A stretch of DNA of 64,000 bases, from assembly GCA_963832745.1 (NCBI GenBank), contig CAWHVC010000005.1, positions 416,001 through 480,000 on the forward strand, given 5' to 3'. The notes beneath the pieces were generated by a model. It ran no database searches. It worked only from the letters and a program-made list of their open reading frames with translations, and had not been told where the DNA came from. The position numbers were made by a program, and so were the translations under genes. Of the stretch, positions 12,085 through 21,163 are shown piece after piece; the stretch's first letter is position 1, and every line of letters begins with the position of its first letter. Source of the stretch: Candidatus Bathyarchaeota archaeon. GTDB taxonomy: Archaea > Thermoproteota > Bathyarchaeia > Bathyarchaeales > Bathycorpusculaceae.

Positions 12085-14967
12085 TTATTCGATGTAAATT
12101 GCTGGTTGATACGGCATTGCCATCGGTGCACGGTTTTTGGGGTCAAAACGGTCTTTGTCGTCTTCACTGTAAACGCTGACTTCAGCTCCGAAACGGTCCT
12201 TAAGGAAACCCAAAGCGTCGGCAACAATCTGCTTCTCATCGACGGTTTGGATTTTAACCATGTTTGCTTTTCGGTTACTTGCCAGTTTTGTTGATGCTTT
12301 GATGATTTTGGGTACCAAGGCGGCGATGTCTTTCATGTGTGGTTTAAGTTCAGGGTCTGCGGCGAATTCTTTCATGAGTTCGGGAATTTTCGCTTCACCG
12401 GAAACGACTTTTTCGAGGACTTTTAAGTAGATTTGCCATTTCCAAGCTGCAGCAGCGTAGAAGACGAGGCGTTTGGGCGTGATTTTGGTTGCTTTGAGGA
12501 TGTTTTGTGTGTCGGTTAAGATGTCGGTGATTAGGTTTTCTTGCTCTTCAGCGGCAAAATCCAGTTTAGCTTCGTCAAACTCTGGCCATTTAGCTACACT
12601 AATAAAGCCAGTTTCGCCTGTTTGGCTCCAAAGTTCCTCACACATATAAGGAGCAAACGGGGTAAGCATCTTAATCCAAACCTTAACCGTCTCGACAAGC
12701 GCGGCTGCGTTTGCGTTGCCTTTCCTTTGAATGTACCATCGCAGGTCATTCCACACTTCGAAAAGCGCCGTTTGCAGCGCAGTGCGTGTTTTAAGTTCAT
12801 CAAGACTCTCGGTAACTTCACGGATGCGGTACTGCAGTTTGCTTTGCAGCCAACGTTCCAGCACAGTGTTTTCATCCTGTTTGGTGGTTGCGATGATGTT
12901 GCTTGCAAAACCATTTAGGGATTCAAACTTGGTTTTGAGGTCGCTTACGTTGTCTGCTCGCCAGTCTGGGTCATCCATGCCTTCAGCGCCAATCATGAGT
13001 CCACAGCGGGTGGCGTCTGCGCCGTATTTGTCGATGGCGCCTTTCATTGTGATGAAGTTGCCTTTGCTTTTGTGCATGCCTTGACCTTCAACCATGAGCA
13101 TGCCGTTTACGCCGATGCCTTTTGGCCAATGTTCTGGCGGGAACAGGGCGGCGTGGTGGAAGATGCAGAATGAGAGGTGGTTGGGTACGAGTTCTTTTGC
13201 AGAGTTTCTTAGGTCGAATGGGTACCAGTAAAGGAATTCGTTGCGCATTGAATCTAAAAGCTCAACGCTGATGCCGGTTGCGGTGCTAATTTGGTTTTTG
13301 TCGCCTTTGCCATAGTAAATGTAGTCAAAAACTTCTGGAACAAGCGCTTCTGGAGCGATCTTGTTTTGGTTAATGTGCTTGTTTATGGTGTAGAATGCCA
13401 TGTAAATGGTGGAGTCGCTTAAGGTTTCAATTATCCAGCCTTTACCCCAGGGCAACGGCGTTCCAAAACCGGTGGTTCTTGCGCAAGCCCATTCACGGAG
13501 CCAATCGATGGTGGTGTAGAAGCCTGTGCGGGCGCCTTCAGGGTAAATCCTCATTTGCGCCACCACTTCTTTGGCTTTCTCTTTCCACTGCGGGTCAGAA
13601 TAGTTTAGAAACCATTGGTCAGAAAGAATCTTGACAATGCACTGTGTCATGCATCGGCAAACCACTTGTTCAGGCAAATCATACATGCTGTCGGAAACGC
13701 CAAGTTTGTGGAAGTCAGCAATCAATAAATCTTTAACTTCACGGATTGATTTGCCAGCGTAGACGCCGCAGTTGGGTTTTAGTTTGCCGCTGTGGAATTC
13801 TTTCTTGTAAAGCTCTTTAGTGGCTTGATCCGCTTTGGGGTCATGCTGATCTTTGATTCCCATCTGCTCAACAATTTCAACAGCTGGATACTCTCCGAAC
13901 CCGTCAACTTTAATGATTGAAATCGGCTTAATCTGCAAAACCACTTGTGGGTCAACACCGAAATCGCGCATGACTTCGGGTTTCTGCTGCAAATCCTTCA
14001 ATGCCAACCAGTCGAAGGGTGCGTGAGCAGGAACGCTGTAAACGACACCTGTTGCCGTTTTGGGATCAACAAACCAGCCTGGCAGGATCGGGAACTTTTC
14101 GTGGGTAACTGGATTTTCAAATGTTTTGCCGATTAATTCTTTACCTTTGAAAACGCGGTGTATTGTGACGGTTTTTTGTTGCTCTTTTAGTTTTTCTGCG
14201 GCTTCTTGGCTGATTATCCAGTTTTCACTGTTAACCGTGGCTTCTACGTAGGTAGAGTCGGGGTTAATCCACAAGTTGGTTATGCCGTAAATGGTTTCTG
14301 GACGGAAAGTTGCTGCTGGCAAAACTGTGGTTTCATCAAGTTTGTACTTGATTATAGTGTATTCTTCAGGGGTTACGCCTTCACCGATTTGACGGTCATG
14401 GTCGCCGGTGGGGCTTTGGTCTTTTGGACACCAAACAACCGGATGAGTGCCCCGTGTAACGTAGCCTTTTTCTTTTAGGTTTTTGTATTGCCATTCAATA
14501 AATTTCTGAAAAGTCGGCCAAACCGTAGTGAATTCTCTGCGCCAGTCAACTGAGAATCCGATGCGTTTAGCGGCGATTTTGCCTTCACTTGTGTAATATT
14601 GAGCCATATATTTTGGGTCAACAAACTTTTGCAGTTGCTCTTCTGGGACGCCGTCTACTTCGCGCAGGACACGGATGAATTCTTGGTCGCCTCTTGCTAC
14701 ACGTTGACTTGCACCCAGCAGAGGTTGTCCAGTCCAATGCCATGCCCAAGGCCAAAGCACGTTGTAGCCTTGCATGCGTTTGAAGCGGGCGTAAGCGTCA
14801 ACTCTGCTGGCGGAGAAAGCGTGACCAACATGTAAGGGTCCGTTCATGTATGGGAACGGGAATGTTACCATTACTTTTTGTCTTGCCGGGTCTGGGTCTG
14901 CTTCGAATATGTGTGCGGCTTCCCATCGGGATAGCCATTTTTCCTCGACTTGCTTTGTTTGGCTCAT
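12085..14967 (-). CDS. leuS: Leucine--tRNA ligase (archaeal type)
   Basis: FPFPYMNGPLHVGH, ATFRPET, SVPAHAPFD editing domain, IETLSDSTIYMA, KMSKS variant GMHKS. Confidence 0.96.
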   Translation of the reverse strand: MSQTKQVEEKWLSRWEAAHIFEADPDPARQKVMVTFPFPYMNGPLHVGHAFSASRVDAYARFKRMQGYNVLWPWAWHWTGQPLLGASQRVARGDQEFIRVLREVDGVPEEQLQKFVDPKYMAQYYTSEGKIAAKRIGFSVDWRREFTTVWPTFQKFIEWQYKNLKEKGYVTRGTHPVVWCPKDQSPTGDHDRQIGEGVTPEEYTIIKYKLDETTVLPAATFRPETIYGITNLWINPDSTYVEATVNSENWIISQEAAEKLKEQQKTVTIHRVFKGKELIGKTFENPVTHEKFPILPGWFVDPKTATGVVYSVPAHAPFDWLALKDLQQKPEVMRDFGVDPQVVLQIKPISIIKVDGFGEYPAVEIVEQMGIKDQHDPKADQATKELYKKEFHSGKLKPNCGVYAGKSIREVKDLLIADFHKLGVSDSMYDLPEQVVCRCMTQCIVKILSDQWFLNYSDPQWKEKAKEVVAQMRIYPEGARTGFYTTIDWLREWACARTTGFGTPLPWGKGWIIETLSDSTIYMAFYTINKHINQNKIAPEALVPEVFDYIYYGKGDKNQISTATGISVELLDSMRNEFLYWYPFDLRNSAKELVPNHLSFCIFHHAALFPPEHWPKGIGVNGMLMVEGQGMHKSKGNFITMKGAIDKYGADATRCGLMIGAEGMDDPDWRADNVSDLKTKFESLNGFASNIIATTKQDENTVLERWLQSKLQYRIREVTESLDELKTRTALQTALFEVWNDLRWYIQRKGNANAAALVETVKVWIKMLTPFAPYMCEELWSQTGETGFISVAKWPEFDEAKLDFAAEEQENLITDILTDTQNILKATKITPKRLVFYAAAAWKWQIYLKVLEKVVSGEAKIPELMKEFAADPELKPHMKDIAALVPKIIKASTKLASNRKANMVKIQTVDEKQIVADALGFLKDRFGAEVSVYSEDDKDRFDPKNRAPMAMPYQPAIYIE

Positions 14968-15102: not shown

Positions 15103-16113
15103 ATGTCAAGGGAAAGCTTAGCGGAAAAACTAATAGCTACATTGAACCAGAAAAGCGAAAAAGCCATTGACGCAGCAAAACAGTTAATTTTAGAAGAAAA
15201 ATTTTGTGGGGAAAAAGTTAACCAGACTCTTGAACAGTACACTGCAAAGTGGAGTGATAGCACAAGACCGGGAACGTTGGCTTTAGCGTTTGAAGCCGTA
15301 GGGGGAAACCCGGGTGATGTGGTGCCTCTTCAGACTGCGTTAGTGCTTATTGACGCCACAATGGATGTTCATGACGACATTATTGATGGTTCAATCGCCA
15401 AAAAGAACGTTAGAACGGTTTATGGCAAACTTGGGAAAGAAGCCACTTTGCTTCTGGGCGACGCTTTTATGGTTAAAGGTTTTAGGCAACTAAATAAGGC
15501 CACCGAGAATTTATCGAAAGAAAAAAGACAACAAATTGTAGATGCAGTTAACAGTTTTCTTCTTGAAGTAGTTGACGCACACATCAGCGAAGCACAGTTA
15601 AAGACTAAGAAGTGGAATATAACTCCTGAAACGTACCTGCAAGTTTTAACTGGTAAAGCGGCTGATATTGATGGGCGCATGAAAGTTGGCGCTATTTTTG
15701 GTGGAGGGTCACCAGGTGAGGTTGAAGCTTTGGGCAAGCTTGGAAGAAACCTTGGGGTTTTGCTGGTGATTAGGGCAGAATATGTGGACATGTTTGAGAC
15801 TGATGAGTTATCAAACCGTGTTAAGAATGAATGTTTACCCTTGCCTGTACTCTATGCCATTCAAAACAGGACCGCGAAAGGAAAAATCAAAAAAATCTTG
15901 TTAAAAGAAAAAATTACTCAAAAGGATTGCGAAGCTGTTCTTGAAATTTTGGACAAATCGAAGGAAATGAAAAATCTTAAAGAATATTTAGCAAAAATTG
16001 CTTTTGAATCAAAAATATTGGCAGAAAGTATAAAGGGAATTCAAGCACGAAACGACTTAAACAATTTAATCGCTTCATTGCTTGAAAATCTTATAGTCCT
16101 CTTTAGATGGTAA
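15103..16113 (+). CDS. Polyprenyl synthetase-family protein with degenerate motifs
   Basis: First Asp-rich motif HDDIID present; RRG replaced by KKN; second Asp-rich motif replaced by IRAEYVD. Confidence 0.8.
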   Translation: MSRESLAEKLIATLNQKSEKAIDAAKQLILEEKFCGEKVNQTLEQYTAKWSDSTRPGTLALAFEAVGGNPGDVVPLQTALVLIDATMDVHDDIIDGSIAKKNVRTVYGKLGKEATLLLGDAFMVKGFRQLNKATENLSKEKRQQIVDAVNSFLLEVVDAHISEAQLKTKKWNITPETYLQVLTGKAADIDGRMKVGAIFGGGSPGEVEALGKLGRNLGVLLVIRAEYVDMFETDELSNRVKNECLPLPVLYAIQNRTAKGKIKKILLKEKITQKDCEAVLEILDKSKEMKNLKEYLAKIAFESKILAESIKGIQARNDLNNLIASLLENLIVLFRW

Positions 16114-16153
16114 AGCGGACTGGTTTCTTTCTCACTTGTTTAACTGCCTTCAT
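16103..16153 (-). CDS. Putative 16-aa basic peptide MKAVKQVRKKPVRFTI
   Basis: ATG at 16153, SD AGGTGA at 16164-16159, BRE/TATA CAAAG-CTTATATT ~35 nt upstream of the ATG. Confidence 0.6.
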   Translation of the reverse strand: MKAVKQVRKKPVRFTI

Positions 16154-16295
16154 CCCTTTCACCTGTATATCTGTAGAACGCAGACACAATATAAGCTTTG
16201 TTGTACTACAGACATACAAGTGATAAAAAGCATGCTAAAAATACGTATTTTAGATTCATAAGGTTATAGGGCATGTATGCAATAGCACTACTTAG

Positions 16296-17613
16296 ATGTG
16301 CAAAACAAAACTCACCGATTGGCCAGTACTTTTTCTGGTTGCGAACAGCATATCCTGGTTTAGCCTTACCATGCTTATTATCGGAGATTTTGCTGGAGCA
16401 TATTCAACAAATGAAACATTAACTATTGCAGCAGGCTATTTCGGTGGCCTAATAATATCGGCAACAATAGGCGCCACCATTTTACAAAACAAATTAAGAA
16501 ACAAAGGGTTTTTGGCCTCATGGATTCTCTTTGGTGTTGCAACGTGCATAATATTTTCCCAAGTGGGCTTCACGGACGTTTTAAACATTACTTTAGCCTC
16601 ACTAGTCCTCGGAGTATCAGTGGGTTTAGGAATACCAACATGTTTTTCATTCTTTGCAAATCAAACAAAAATTGAAAACAGGGGAAAAATAGGGGCAATA
16701 CTGTTCTTTCTCATCCAATTTTTCAGTGCCATAATAATTCTTTCACAAACTGACATGGGAATCAGCAATCAATTTTTAATACTTGCATTATGGCGATTGA
16801 TAGGCGCAGTAGGAATCATTAGTTACAAATCACCATTGAATCAACAAAAAGAACCGGCGACATCCATTAGGTCAATCATCAAAGAAAGACCCGTTCTCCT
16901 TTTCTTCCTGCCATGGTTCCTGTTTACCTTAGTGAATTTTATTGAGTCACCAGTAATTGAGACTTATTTTGGTCCAGAACTTTTCAATAGTTCAGTGATA
17001 GCAACCACTTTTATTAGCAGCATTTCAGCGTTCCTTGCCGGAACGCTCTGCGATATCAAAGGTCGAAAAATCACAGGCATAATAGGTTTCGTTCTTTTAG
17101 GCTTAGGTTACGCGTTTCTAAGTTTTCTTAACTGGTCCTGAGAAGATTATTGCACAATATCTGTACATTTTATGCGATGGATTAGCATGGGGCATTCTTT
17201 TTGTTACATTCATTTTTGTCGTGTGGGGAGACTTATCAGAAGGCAAAAACCGTGAAAAATATTATCTTGTGGGCAGCATGCCTTTCCTCTTTTCAGGCAT
17301 GATAGAAATGCTAATTCAACCAATTGCAAAGGACATTGCTATAGGCACAGCATTTTCTCTTGCCAGTTTCTTCTTGTTCTTAGCAATCGTCCCATTGCTT
17401 TATACAACTGAAACTTTGCCTGAAAAAGCCATGAAAGATAGGGACCTTAAGAGTTATCTTGAAAAAGCTCAAAAAGTTGCTGAAAAAGAAGCCGCCAAAA
17501 AACATCATAAAGAAAAATCTAAATCTCAGAAAAAAGAAGAAAAGGAAACTGCTGAGGAAGAGAATTTTAAAGAGTACGAAGAAGCTCAAAAATTGGCAGA
17601 ACAATACTATTAA
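16296..17613 (+). pseudogene. MFS transporter split by a single frameshift near 17125 (or a sequencing error)
   Basis: Multi-TM ORF (ENRGK, DIKGRK motifs) continues in another frame as ...CDGLAWGILFVTFIFVVWGDLSEG...ETLPEK. Confidence 0.8.
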
Positions 17614-17637
17614 GCACGCGTTACGTAATGGCTTGGC

Positions 17638-18768
17638 ATGTTCTTTCACGTGATACTCACCACGGACTGCAACCTTCAATGTAAATACTGCTTCGGCGAA
17701 TCCCTTGACGATTTTGACGAAGACTTCAGTGACGACTTAACAGTAGACTATTCATTGCCAAGAAAAATCACTTATAACATCAAAATGTTAAAAGAATTTT
17801 GCAGCAAAGACCCCGACTGTGTATTGACGTTTTATGGCGGCGAACCTTTGATGCAGATGGAGCCGCTTAAGCAAATCATGGACAATATTGAACCTAAAAT
17901 GTACATGATGCAAACCAACGGTTTACTTCTTGACAAACTTGAGTCCAAGTACGTTAACCGTTTCCACACCCTGCTTGTCTCAGTTGACGGCGAGGAAGTT
18001 TTAACTGATTATTACCGTGGAGCGGGCACTTTTCGCAAAGTCGTCGATAACCTAAAACTCATAAAACAAAACGGCTTCAAAGGCGAATTAATCGCCAGAG
18101 TCACAGTGATGGAGCAAACAGACATTTACAAACAAATCCGCTGGCTACTTGAAAACAAAGAGTTCCCATTCACTTCGTTACATTGGCAGCTTAACGCTGG
18201 TTTCTGGGGCAACGATTACCAAAGACGCAACTTCAAAGAGTGGTCAGAAACCAACTATATTCCAGGTGTTAGGGCGCTTGTCAAATTCTGGGTTGATACT
18301 ATGGAACAGAAAGGTCAGGTGCTAAAGCTTTACCCAATTTTAGGCGTAGCATACTCAATGCTGCATGATGAAAACGTGAATTTTCTGCGTTGCGGCGGCG
18401 GATGGGTAAATTATGCCATTCAAACAGACGGTTACATTTTGGCTTGTCCAACAATGTGGGGAATGACGCAGCATTACCTGGGACACATCGCTGATGCACA
18501 TCCGCTTAAGCTTGAGAAAGTGTTTGTTAATCAGCCGCCTTGCTCTGAATGTGAAATTCTAAACATGTGCGGTGGCAGATGCTACTACGCCAACGTAACG
18601 CAACGGTGGAGCGTGGATGCTTACAAGGAAGTCTGCAACACAGTCAAAGCCCTTGTTGATGATGTCTCAGTGGAGGTTCCACGCATAAAACAGTTAATAG
18701 CTCAAGAAAAAATCAGCTTAGCAGATTTTGACTTTATCAAATACAACGGCGCTGAAATCATTCCATAA
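17638..18768 (+). CDS. Radical SAM/SPASM protein, TIGR04084 (AF0577)-like
   Basis: CNLQCKYC, FYGGEPL, MQTNG, SPASM CGGG...ACP...CSECEILNMCGGRC, C-terminal EIIP. Confidence 0.88.
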   Translation: MFFHVILTTDCNLQCKYCFGESLDDFDEDFSDDLTVDYSLPRKITYNIKMLKEFCSKDPDCVLTFYGGEPLMQMEPLKQIMDNIEPKMYMMQTNGLLLDKLESKYVNRFHTLLVSVDGEEVLTDYYRGAGTFRKVVDNLKLIKQNGFKGELIARVTVMEQTDIYKQIRWLLENKEFPFTSLHWQLNAGFWGNDYQRRNFKEWSETNYIPGVRALVKFWVDTMEQKGQVLKLYPILGVAYSMLHDENVNFLRCGGGWVNYAIQTDGYILACPTMWGMTQHYLGHIADAHPLKLEKVFVNQPPCSECEILNMCGGRCYYANVTQRWSVDAYKEVCNTVKALVDDVSVEVPRIKQLIAQEKISLADFDFIKYNGAEIIP

Positions 18769-18817: not shown

Positions 18818-21163
18818 TCAAGTTTGGGGTAGCTGGGGTTGTTCAGGATTAAGCGGAATTTTAACGGTCACAGTTGTTCCTTGTCCAAGTGTGCTGTCAA
18901 TCAAGAGCTTGCCGCCGTGAGCTTCCACGATACGTTTGCAGATGGGTATCCCGAAACCCATGCCCTTAGCTTTTGTTGTAAACAAGGGGTTACCCAGCTT
19001 CTGCAACGTTTCTTTAGTCATGCCCTCGCCGGAATCAGTGAAAGCTACAACCCAGTTTTTCCTAGTCTGTTTGCTGATTATTGTTAGGTTTCCTCCTTTT
19101 GGCATAGCATCAAAAGCGTTCTTGAGGATGTTTAAAAAGACGCGAAGCATTTTTGCCGAGTCAAATTTTACTGGAGCATCATTTGAGGCTTGATGGACAA
19201 CTTTGATGTTCTGCGGTACCTGAATTGTTGATAAAGTGTAAGTGAAGAATATTGACGGATTGTTCTCGGTTAAGTCTACCTTGACAGTTCTTGAGTATTC
19301 CAGCAGGTCGTTCACGATTTTGTTTGATTGATCTATGCAGTCATCGATTAAGTCAAGCATTTCCTTGGTTTTAGGGTTAGAATCATTTCTTGTTTTTCCC
19401 TTCAAATAGTATGTTGCAGCTTTCATGCCCGTTAATGGGTTACGCAAGTCATGACCCACCATCGCGGCTAATTCGCCGATGGCTGCGAGCCTTTCCGTTT
19501 TTACCAGTTTTTCTTGTGTTTCTTTAAGCTGCTTTGTTCTCGCCTCAACTAGCCGTTCCAGTTTTGTTGAATGTTGGCTTTCCAGTCGCCTTTTTTCGGT
19601 TACATCTACAGCTAACTCTAACGCAGACATAATCTTGCCGTTTTCATCTTTAATCGGGGTTACAATAAGTTCTGTGCATCTTTGTTCGCCCTTCTTGTTG
19701 ATGAAGTAGTAATCGTGACGATTTACTGATTCGAGGTTATCAAAAATCTTTTGAACACCACAGCCATCACATACGCCTTGTTCATTGTTAAATATTGTAT
19801 AGCAAAGCTGATTTTGGATAGACTCATTCCGTAATCCCCGCATAAGCTTGTTAGCCCATAATATCCGGTAATCTCTACTAATGATGGCAAGGCCTGCATC
19901 AATGTTTTCTGTAATTGTTTCAAGAAGGTCACGTTCCTGTTTTAGGGACTCTTCCATTTTTTTACGGTTAGAAACGTCATGAACGACACCTGCAACGTAT
20001 TTTTTGTCTTTAAGCTGAAGACTAGTTGCTGACAATTCAGCTGGGAAAAAGGTTTTGTCTTTTCTAACAGCGGTAACTTCGAGAGCTTTGTTACTTTTCT
20101 GTTTGTTTTTAGCAAGTTTCTTAAGGCAAAACTTGTGATCTTCCCGGTTTTCGGCTGGAATAACTAAGTCACTTAACCTTTTTCCAATTGCCTCTTGTAT
20201 GGGGTAACCAAACATTTTTTCAGCTGATGGATTCCAATAAACAATTTTATCGTCTTCGTCAACTAAAATTAATGCATCAATCGCTGTTGTGGCTATGGCG
20301 CGGAATTTTTCTTCACTTGCGATTAAATCGTCTTCAAGCTTTTTACGTTCAGAAATATTTTTAGTGTTAACCACAAACCCAATTATTTTCCCGTTTCTAT
20401 TTACTGGGTTTGAATTAATTTCTGCAGGGAACTCTTGGCCAGCTTTATTTGTTAAGGTGTATATTTCTGTTTTAAGAATGCCAGTTTTAATAATTTTTTC
20501 TAAGGCATACTTAACCCGTTTTTGTTCTCTTTCCGGTACGTGCTTGAAAATATTCAGGTTAATTGCTTCGTCTCTAGATGAGTAACCAAAAAGTTTCATG
20601 GCGCCCATATTATAATCTAACAATCGACCATCAGGTGTAATAAATGATATAGCATCAGGCGATGATTCGAAAATAGTCCGCATCTTTTCAGCGCTTTCTT
20701 GGATTTCACGTACTTTTTCGTTAACTAAAGAGGCAAGTCTTTGAGAGTCTTCCTTTAATTTTTGCTCAACAAGTATCCTGTTAGTTATATCTCTAAGAAT
20801 GATTAAAACAGATGATTGATAACCGAAGAAATTAATTTTTTTAGCGTTTAACTCAAAGTATCTTTTCGTATTATCTGCAGATTTTATACTTATCTCGTAC
20901 GGGGGAACTTCAATATCTAAAAGTCTTTTTTCCAGATTTTCTTTTACTAAAGCTAAATCTTCAATCATCAAATTATCAGTTACAAAAGAGCTTTTACCAG
21001 TCCATTCATCATTTCGGTGGCCTGTAACTTTTTCGAATGCATGATTTATCAGCAAATAGTTGCCTTTTTCGTCAATTATTGCTGCTGGGTCGGCGATAAA
21101 GTTTAGCAACAAGAGAAAGTTATCTATTGCATGTTCAGCGTTTGTATCCTGCATGCTTTTCAC
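18818..21163 (-). CDS. Multi-PAS sensor histidine kinase
   Basis: Four PAS-like repeats; MVGHDLRNPL H-box; N, D/G1 (DSGEGM), F and G2 boxes. Confidence 0.92.
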   Translation of the reverse strand: MKSMQDTNAEHAIDNFLLLLNFIADPAAIIDEKGNYLLINHAFEKVTGHRNDEWTGKSSFVTDNLMIEDLALVKENLEKRLLDIEVPPYEISIKSADNTKRYFELNAKKINFFGYQSSVLIILRDITNRILVEQKLKEDSQRLASLVNEKVREIQESAEKMRTIFESSPDAISFITPDGRLLDYNMGAMKLFGYSSRDEAINLNIFKHVPEREQKRVKYALEKIIKTGILKTEIYTLTNKAGQEFPAEINSNPVNRNGKIIGFVVNTKNISERKKLEDDLIASEEKFRAIATTAIDALILVDEDDKIVYWNPSAEKMFGYPIQEAIGKRLSDLVIPAENREDHKFCLKKLAKNKQKSNKALEVTAVRKDKTFFPAELSATSLQLKDKKYVAGVVHDVSNRKKMEESLKQERDLLETITENIDAGLAIISRDYRILWANKLMRGLRNESIQNQLCYTIFNNEQGVCDGCGVQKIFDNLESVNRHDYYFINKKGEQRCTELIVTPIKDENGKIMSALELAVDVTEKRRLESQHSTKLERLVEARTKQLKETQEKLVKTERLAAIGELAAMVGHDLRNPLTGMKAATYYLKGKTRNDSNPKTKEMLDLIDDCIDQSNKIVNDLLEYSRTVKVDLTENNPSIFFTYTLSTIQVPQNIKVVHQASNDAPVKFDSAKMLRVFLNILKNAFDAMPKGGNLTIISKQTRKNWVVAFTDSGEGMTKETLQKLGNPLFTTKAKGMGFGIPICKRIVEAHGGKLLIDSTLGQGTTVTVKIPLNPEQPQLPQT

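Follow-up and report, generated by a model that had tools for sequence, protein, structure and literature searches.

A conserved archaeal gene module that pairs a degenerate prenyl synthase with a 16-codon micro-ORF and may prenylate and export a very short peptide

A 64,000-nt stretch of a Candidatus Bathyarchaeota genome (contig CAWHVC010000005.1, positions 416,001 to 480,000; hereafter the window) carries a small gene module with a conserved core, namely a synthase-like enzyme gene, a micro-open reading frame (micro-ORF) and a gene for a major facilitator superfamily (MFS) transporter. The encoded peptide, enzyme and transporter probably form one functional module, which is vertically inherited through much of one Bathyarchaeia order and is also present in the methanogen Ca. 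Methanosuratincola. In the explanation that we favour, and to which we assign a probability of roughly 45%, the module would be a system of peptide prenylation and export, comparable to ComQ/ComX or PalQ/PalX and arisen independently in archaea. A prenylated-peptide or quorum-like system had been proposed in a first-pass annotation of this DNA, and that interpretation is partly supported. The source genome consists of 5 contigs (3.02 Mb), with the window located at C5:416001-480000, and its nearest public relatives are 'Bathy-6' metagenome-assembled genomes.

The micro-ORF and its expression signals

The micro-ORF occupies positions 16103..16153 of the minus strand and consists of 16 codons, encoding MKAVKQVRKKPVRFTI, followed by a stop. 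Its ATG (16153-16151) is preceded at a distance of 5 nt by the Shine-Dalgarno (SD)-like sequence AGGTGA (16159..16164, minus strand), and further upstream lies a B recognition element (BRE)/TATA-like element, CAAAGCTTATATT (16188..16200, minus strand), the putative micro-ORF promoter. All of these signals had been described in the first-pass annotation and are present in the sequence, as is the convergence of the micro-ORF on a polyprenyl synthase homolog (15103..16113, plus strand), the product of which matches PF00348 with 71.6 bits against a cut-off of 27. The two genes are positioned tail-to-tail, the micro-ORF overlapping the 3' end of the enzyme gene by 11 nt. This overlap arises because the enzyme ORF of the window extends 6 codons (16093-16113) beyond the stop of its nearest relatives, which end in ...ESL or ...EDL; in most loci the two stops are 2-40 nt apart.

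The BRE/TATA and SD surroundings were found to be conserved in an alignment of nine loci (L001-L009; loci, genomes and families are referred to by our own L, G and f numbers). When 79 distinct upstream regions were aligned on the start codon, a GGTG/GAGG-type site was present ahead of the start in all of them, and an A/T-rich TTATA-type box was located at equal distance from the start. Synonymous and non-synonymous codons were counted by eye from the locus alignment. Between the micro-ORFs of the window and L003, three codons differ synonymously (Val, Arg, Phe) and three change the residue; for L005 and L006 there are five synonymous differences and four residue replacements, most of the latter conservative. 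The synonymous codon pattern indicates that the micro-ORF is translated. Judged from its sequence, the micro-ORF is a genuine gene that encodes a cationic peptide of very small size, and an ORF length of approximately 16 codons is below the reach of usual gene calling.

In the source genome, chance alone would yield 0.04 SD-led ORFs of 7-25 codons with a P..R/K tail per single-strand interval of 160 nt, and 0.0014 of the strict P[VIMA]R form; the surveyed loci share ancestry and are therefore not independent trials against this expectation. The micro-ORF persists where flanking DNA no longer aligns. A chance ORF can be rejected, given an expectation of at most 0.04 per locus versus the micro-ORF at the exact spot in 92 of 124 distinct homolog genes. 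No Rfam family was detected at the region, where only two chance-level miRNA matches were obtained (18-19 bits versus gathering scores of 101-211). A scan of the region for bacterial promoters and terminators, which does not cover archaeal signals, found nothing, and no second copy of the promoter/SD motif occurs in the 3.02-Mb source genome.

Conservation and distribution of the module

An SD-led convergent micro-ORF was detected just past the enzyme stop in nine of nine loci with an intact 3' end, at enzyme identities ranging from 82% to 37%. Sampling was widened to 29 further loci drawn from a genome search across the class and to 20 loci of 9.7-16 kb, and a scan of 185,579 species genomes added another 80; the outcome was the same. 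Within the 80-locus set, automated criteria recovered a family-like micro-ORF in 68 cases and an unrelated-looking match in two, leaving ten without; in two of these ten, L095 (= L003/L014) and L139 (= L038/L060), the micro-ORF is visible when the loci of the same genomes are read separately. After pooling and removal of redundancy by enzyme sequence, a qualifying micro-ORF was present at 92 of 124 evaluable enzyme genes, giving 88 distinct peptides; one of the 92 automated positives is clearly false. Conservation of the micro-ORF beside homologous synthases, suggested as a check in the first-pass annotation, is thus borne out.

Carriers of the micro-ORF belong to the Bathyarchaeia and to Ca. 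Methanosuratincola, with enzyme identity decreasing to approximately 30%. Of the Bathyarchaeia genomes sampled, 115 of 401 gave a match to the module, which is present almost throughout family f1 (82 of 103 genomes). In a phylum-wide search, 54 of 401 Thermoproteota genomes were found to encode a member of the enzyme family, including 19 of the 32 genomes of family f44, which corresponds to Ca. Methanosuratincola (M. verstraetei LCB70, M. petrocarbonis LWZ-6). All six f44 loci examined contain convergent micro-ORFs of 13-16 codons with a shared P-[V/I]-R-x-W core, for example MKNYNPTPVRLWVPG. Tandem duplicates of the micro-ORF occur in three of these six loci (L077, L078, L084) and also in L017 (at 2489-2539 and 2798-2848). 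In all four cases the copies encode identical peptides and each is preceded by its own SD, and such duplication fits a product needed in quantity.

Several unusual loci were also recorded. At G136:C31 (L025/L055) and G077:C13 (L072), two IDS-like (isoprenyl diphosphate synthase-like) paralogs stand in tandem and a micro-ORF follows only the second of them. In L010, matches to the enzyme gene and to the radical SAM gene described below each fall in two frames, and a longer degenerate ORF occupies the position of the micro-ORF; the module may be decaying here, or the assembly may be of low accuracy. Finally, the module is carried by two short contigs (L110, L169) labelled as Caldiserica bacterium UBA646 and Candidatus Baldrarchaeota; these labels may be due to mis-binning or to transfer.

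The MFS transporter gene (16296..17613, plus strand; PF07690) is divergent from the micro-ORF. Its synteny with the enzyme gene, another check put forward earlier, holds: the two genes adjoin in 18 of the 20 wider loci, and in 19 of 20 once the Methanosuratincola MFS had been added as a query, while in f44 five of six loci show this adjacency (tblastn). The gene order given in the first-pass annotation (a divergent MFS gene, then a radical SAM/SPASM gene, then a PAS kinase gene) is correct, except that the MFS gene is here broken into two ORFs (16296-17141 and 17221-17613). The break results from one extra T in the T-run at 17123-17126 relative to L001 and L002, as seen in the alignment. In L001-L009 the two MFS matches share one reading frame, and in L002 they form a single ORF of 437 aa. 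The frameshift could be genuine, making the gene a pseudogene, or could stem from a homopolymer error in a long-read assembly. Both Atlas and Pfam name the transporter merely as a generic, Bathyarchaeota-specific MFS protein.

Composition of the peptides

The 88 distinct peptides, comprising 1449 residues altogether, are 8-25 aa long (median 16) and share a common layout, in which a Lys/Arg-rich N-terminus is followed by a P-x-R core and a short variable tail. Lys and Arg account for 509 of the 1449 residues and Cys for only four. The core conforms to P-[V/I/M/L/A/T]-R in 77 of the 88 peptides, and the tail beyond it comprises 2-9 residues, most commonly 3-4. Trp occurs in the tail of 52 peptides, and Phe, Trp or Tyr in that of 72. 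The most frequent last residues are Trp (15/88), Ile (14/88), Pro (12/88) and Phe (10/88). In the window peptide, the tail beyond the Arg reads F-T-I. The residue third from the end is therefore Phe and not Trp, as had been remarked before; this aromatic position is occupied by Trp in many relatives, and Trp is found at that exact position in L100, the enzyme of which is 54% identical.

The synthase-like enzyme

The enzyme gene encodes a non-canonical protein of 336 aa resembling isoprenyl diphosphate synthases of the trans type (trans-IDS). Its best equivalog in NCBIfam, IdsA_Meth, scored 87.4 bits versus a cut-off of 468, and all 14 listed families remained under their cut-offs. The canonical motifs of such synthases are known as the GKRxRP-type basic loop, RRG, GQxxD and the two DDxxD motifs. 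Of these, the first DDxxD is retained (HDDIID, residues 90-95), in agreement with the first-pass annotation. Also as claimed there, RRG and GQxxD have been lost: in an alignment to the geranylgeranyl diphosphate synthase (GGPPS) of P. horikoshii (1WY0), KKN stands in place of RRG and GQxxD is absent. Moreover, DSTRPG stands where 1WY0 has the basic loop, ahead of helix 2. These residues of the isopentenyl diphosphate (IPP) site, i.e. the basic loop, RRG and GQxxD, are replaced likewise throughout the family. The claimed loss of the second DDxxD applies to the window protein (AEYVD, residues 225-229) but is peculiar to its clade and does not extend to the whole family; in most relatives the second motif reads (D/E)(D/E)xxD, and its last Asp (D229) is invariant.

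The family alignment consisted of 37 sequences, 26-67% identical to the window protein. H90, D91, D92, D95, E163, G218 and D229 are invariant in it, and W50, K185, E190, R215, R224, E235 and R239 are kept in at least 90% of the sequences; the diphosphate-binding Lys is retained in the enzyme. An AF2 model was obtained with pLDDT 95 and a predicted template modelling (TM) score of 0.92. Its best fold matches in Foldseek are chain-elongating synthases, with 1wy0 at the top (TM 0.82), and Ord1, a farnesyltransferase of free Trp, appears at ranks 27-38 (TM ~0.71). A separate canonical synthase is encoded in the source genome (PF00348, 218 bits).

As far as can be judged from its residues, selection has preserved the enzyme's catalytic capacity and not its function in chain elongation. 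The possibility that it is an inactive synthase subunit was rejected on account of the invariant catalytic-type residues. On the basis of established family knowledge, we read the enzyme as a Mg-diphosphate-binding catalyst that would have given up IPP. The same knowledge suggests that the remaining chemistry may be either prenyl transfer to another acceptor or a reaction of the terpene synthase type.

A profile search of 1.84 billion representatives returned 678 proteins at E <= 1e-30. Because the lower part of this list includes canonical synthases, the enzyme family comprises at most a few hundred clusters at 50% identity. Five long matches from the search proved to be tandem or extended IDS-like proteins or an SQS_PSY-IDS fusion, and none of the five was fused to an MFS, protease or peptide-binding domain. 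The source genome also contains a second degenerate IDS-like paralog (L013; G000:C4:120166-120993), 26-29% identical to the window enzyme, in which DDxxD is kept and no second motif is present. No micro-ORF was found downstream of this paralog. On contig C4 it adjoins homologs of the TrmB-like helix-turn-helix (HTH) protein (38% identity) and the MinD-like ATPase (37%) that are encoded beside the MFS gene in other lineages.

A palindrome around the promoter

The micro-ORF's TATA box lies within an inverted repeat (16159..16223, unstranded), the 21-nt arms of which (16159-16179 and 16203-16223) are 86% complementary and flank the box on both sides, making the repeat a candidate operator. In most of the 79 upstream regions, half-sites of the TGTTCAACA / TGTTCTACA type stand on either side of the TATA box, and AATAC and the SD come after them. 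The natural reading of this palindrome is that a dimeric regulator would occlude the TATA box, and the HTH protein encoded next to the module in many lineages would be the obvious candidate for such a regulator.

The pattern GTWSWACANNWATAC matched the module in five of five enzyme-bearing genomes. Four matches were obtained in five related genomes without the enzyme, none of them followed by a family-like ORF. As some true sites are missed by the pattern, this constitutes only modest evidence of co-occurrence. Pattern matches elsewhere in G038 and G157 (L183, L186, L187, L190) share another conserved upstream stretch, ...TTAAGTATTATGTC..., which resembles a repeated promoter or element of another type.

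A model of peptide prenylation and export

The model that we propose assumes an enzyme descended from an archaeal GGPP synthase. An allylic prenyl diphosphate would be bound and ionised via the first Asp-rich motif and Mg2+, and IPP would no longer be bound. Since the enzyme appears to have lost IPP binding while retaining allylic binding, we propose that the prenyl group would be transferred to the tail of the peptide, at an aromatic residue where one is present. The lipidated peptide would then be exported by the MFS transporter. A DNA-binding regulator probably controls the peptide promoter, because this promoter is strong and situated inside a conserved palindrome. We thus infer peptide binding, prenyl transfer, export and regulation, as well as a biological role that may be that of a signal, a membrane anchor or an antimicrobial. 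The considerations that lead us to prenylation and export are the gene linkage, the coding signature, the kept and lost enzyme residues, the existing precedents, the aromatic tails, the duplicated micro-ORFs, the adjacency of the MFS gene and a CPBP-like neighbour in f44 (see below).

As for the precedents, the trans-IDS-like peptide prenyltransferases named in the 2026 review PMC13290415 are ComQ, the P domain of ChrPC and PalQ, while Ord1 acts on free Trp. According to the same text, all characterised trans-IDS-like members target Trp, those listed are bacterial, and a conserved Gln precedes the second motif (PMC13290415). In StheQ, a single Mg site is located at the first motif and a pseudo-second motif positions the substrate, as stated in the accessible portion of the preprint, which also extends ComQ-like systems beyond Firmicutes, to Chloroflexi (StheQ/StheX preprint, 2026). 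A 2014 census, in the part available, gave ComQXPA loci as absent outside Firmicutes. The PalQ locus is described as consisting of a kinase, an NHLP-type precursor and the enzyme (PalQ paper, available sections). Where the ComQ, StheQ and PalQ loci are described in the portions of these sources at hand, the peptide gene is situated in the same locus as the prenylating enzyme. Our literature search with archaeal terms found no archaeal system of such kind.

In outline, the archaeal module would resemble the ComQ and PalQ systems. With ComQ/ComX of Bacillus and StheQ/StheX of Sphaerobacter it shares the all-helical fold of trans-IDS enzymes, a first Asp-rich motif that is intact and a second that is altered, the apparent absence of IPP elongation (here deduced from residues), an adjoining small peptide gene, an aromatic residue a few residues from the peptide C-terminus and a hypervariable tail. 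With PalQ/PalX of Paenibacillus alvei it shares the trans-IDS-like enzyme; PalQ uses a terminal Trp, and the 15 archaeal peptides that end in Trp may be compared with it. The PalX core, as proposed, terminates in a stretch rich in Arg, Phe and Trp, according to the available sections of the PalQ paper. With archaeal GGPPS (PF00348), the enzyme has in common the fold, the first Asp-rich motif, the Lys that binds diphosphate and the final Asp of the second motif. Unlike in elongating synthases, other residues stand in place of the basic IPP loop, RRG and GQxxD, and the enzyme scores far under the NCBIfam cut-offs.

The differences are considerable as well. ComX and StheX are usually ~55-70 aa long. 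The archaeal peptides, in contrast to them, are 8-25 aa long and have no separate leader; the residue numbers given for StheX in the preprint run to at least 69. The archaeal genes are convergent and not co-directional as in ComQ and StheQ loci, and Trp is present in only 52 of the 88 peptides. Unlike in ComQXPA, the partner gene encodes an MFS transporter and not a ComP/ComA pair, and a kinase is not conserved in the archaeal locus. PalX possesses a nitrile-hydratase-like leader and the Pal locus a histidine kinase, as far as the PalQ paper is available, neither of which characterises the archaeal module. The Gln-centred Trp-recognition network described for PalQ in the same sections is not conserved in the archaeal enzyme.

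Several observations weigh against the proposed model. Firstly, the archaeal enzyme does not possess the conserved Gln/Asn found in ComQ-type enzymes one turn ahead of the second motif; the equivalent position is occupied by Val in the window enzyme and is variable in the family, while R224 (kept in at least 90% of sequences) stands directly ahead of the motif. Secondly, by both sequence and fold the enzyme is nearer to archaeal GGPPS (1WY0) than to Ord1. Thirdly, 16 of the 88 peptides have no aromatic residue past the motif and the L004 peptide lacks the Arg of the motif, so that no single acceptor residue is universal. Fourthly, the automated criteria gave no micro-ORF at 32 of the 124 enzyme genes. 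In the first set of 64 genes, for which the automated misses were inspected, 54 are positive, some of the misses being start-codon or motif variants. The ten that stay negative are two upstream members of tandem pairs, L010 (in which the enzyme gene is broken), L074, both f32 loci and all four of f59/f66. Finally, vertical inheritance and near-universality in f1 suit a housekeeping function better than a typical secondary-metabolite cluster.

With no Gln/Asn at the ComQ position, no universal Trp and a closer relationship to archaeal GGPPS, the module is better regarded as an independent variant than as a member of the ComQ family. We put forward only tentatively, as a proposition somewhat short of even odds, that it represents the first archaeal prenylation of a ribosomal peptide, in which a GGPP-synthase descendant, converted independently of ComQ and PalQ, would act on leaderless precursors of 8-25 residues with export by an MFS transporter and control through a palindromic operator.

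Alternative explanations

The main rival, which we consider unlikely overall, is that the peptide is an unmodified microprotein acting inside the cell, where it would bind the enzyme or the MFS transporter and regulate or complete it as a tiny subunit, not as a substrate. In its favour, the two genes are tightly linked one to one and have been inherited vertically in two classes, the P-x-R core and basic residues could pair with the acidic E163 and E235 of the enzyme, and no acceptor residue is universal. However, tandem duplicates and a hypervariable tail are unusual for a stoichiometric subunit, and so is a separate promoter, apparently very strong, that lies on the opposite strand. Known transporter-binding microproteins have a hydrophobic span, and the peptide has none.

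Still less probable is secretion of the peptide in unmodified form, either as a pheromone in the style of SHP/XIP or as a cationic Trp/Arg-rich antimicrobial, with the enzyme serving separately, for example in the synthesis of a lipid or terpenoid moved by the MFS transporter. In the streptococcal Rgg/SHP and ComR/ComS-XIP systems, unannotated ORFs of ~17-35 codons encode peptides whose N-terminus is basic and whose C-terminus is hydrophobic or aromatic, and a dedicated exporter is accompanied by an HTH regulator acting at a palindromic promoter. The archaeal peptides may be compared with SHP/XIP and also with indolicidin-like peptides in their basic N-terminus (with the Lys/Arg content given above) and hydrophobic aromatic C-terminus; the palindromic promoter, the HTH gene adjacent in many lineages and the adjacent transporter gene fit this picture too. 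On the other hand, SHP/XIP systems are bacterial, include no modifying enzyme, use an ABC exporter and are governed by RRNPP-type regulators, the candidate at the archaeal locus being TrmB-like. Secretion of an unmodified peptide leaves unexplained why peptide and enzyme genes abut, with stops mostly 2-40 nt apart even where other neighbours change. Neither was a promoter and ORF of the micro-ORF type found in any of the five related enzyme-less genomes, as far as the limited sensitivity of the pattern allows.

A third explanation regards the micro-ORF mainly as a cis-regulatory device, i.e. antisense transcription into the 3' end of the enzyme gene, tuned by translation of an ORF whose peptide would have no function. 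The convergent, overlapping or near-abutting arrangement in almost all loci and the seemingly strong promoter with its operator-like palindrome are compatible with such a device, as are the 12 peptides that end in Pro, since a C-terminal Pro is a poor termination context. We nevertheless hold it very improbable, because selection appears to act at the level of amino acids, as seen from the synonymous excess and from a P-[V/I/M]-R core in 77 of 88 peptides over very divergent DNA, and because each copy of a duplicated ORF has its own SD.

Neighbouring genes

In the window, the MFS gene is followed by a TIGR04084 radical SAM/SPASM gene (17638..18768, plus strand; 307 bits versus a cut-off of 225), which starts 25 nt past it and has the PapB ranthipeptide maturase family as its second-best NCBIfam match (94.9 bits). 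The notion that the peptide is a precursor matured by this enzyme into a ribosomally synthesised and post-translationally modified peptide is largely refuted by its distribution: it adjoins the module in nine of nine f1 loci but in none of 11 non-f1 loci (families f4, f5, f8, f14 and f32), no TIGR04084 match was found at E <= 1e-20 in the module-bearing genomes G136 and G268, the match lies ~200-1100 kb from the module in G090, G407 and G414, and the peptides contain only four Cys in 1449 residues. Adjacency in f1 looks like synteny by descent, because a leucyl-tRNA synthetase gene (in the window a leucyl-tRNA synthetase-like ORF at 12085-14967, minus strand) is adjacent in six of the same nine loci. 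Among 14 control genomes, TIGR04084 scored above its cut-off in Sulfolobus acidocaldarius alone, where the module was not searched for. The TIGR04084 family is evidently independent of the module. As for the literature on TIGR04084/AF0577, no mention of TIGR04084 was found in the search results at hand, and matches to AF0577 appeared under unrelated titles. The PAS/HisKA/HATPase histidine kinase gene (18818-21163, minus strand) was matched only in the two nearest relatives, L002 and L003, among L001-L011. The first-pass suspicion that the radical SAM and kinase genes may be incidental neighbours was therefore well founded.

A different set of genes accompanies the core outside f1, a TrmB-like HTH gene and a MinD-like ATPase gene being adjacent to the MFS gene in most lineages. 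Genes for a TrmB-like HTH protein and a MinD/ParA-like ATPase follow the MFS gene in seven non-f1 Bathyarchaeia loci (L009, L055, L061, L064, L066, L067 and L070), and the TrmB-like HTH and MinD-like ATPase pair is also found in six of six f44 loci.

In f44, a 329-aa membrane protein is encoded directly upstream of the enzyme gene (L077, 7740-8729, minus strand), and its homolog adjoins the enzyme gene in four of five further f44 loci (L078, L079, L084 and L086, not L083; tblastn). For the L077 protein, Atlas gave 0.96 to Rce1/CPBP (PF02517) clusters, NCBIfam a weak match to MrtJ (E 0.0019) and Pfam nothing. Judging from this single protein, the f44 membrane protein is probably a CPBP/Rce1-like intramembrane protease. 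Its position beside the enzyme gene recalls eukaryotic CaaX processing, in which prenylation is followed by endoproteolysis. The two CPBP genes of the source genome are located 84 kb and 183 kb from the module.

Conclusions

To our knowledge, scarcely any peptide signals or lipopeptides have been described from archaea, and we found no archaeal report of a small, possibly lipid-tagged, exported peptide of the kind considered here. The locus offers a testable enzyme-substrate pair, consisting of one enzyme and one synthetic 16-mer. The module is common in the sampled genomes of Bathyarchaeia and of the Methanosuratincola family, and Ca. Methanosuratincola has cultured representatives. If the enzyme accepts Phe, Tyr or Arg besides Trp, the known chemistry of this enzyme class would be widened. 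If the proposed model is true, precursor genes encoding 8-25 residues would rank among the shortest genes known, and the module would provide a candidate for a signal between cells or for a lipopeptide targeted to membranes, in lineages that are dominant in anoxic sediments.

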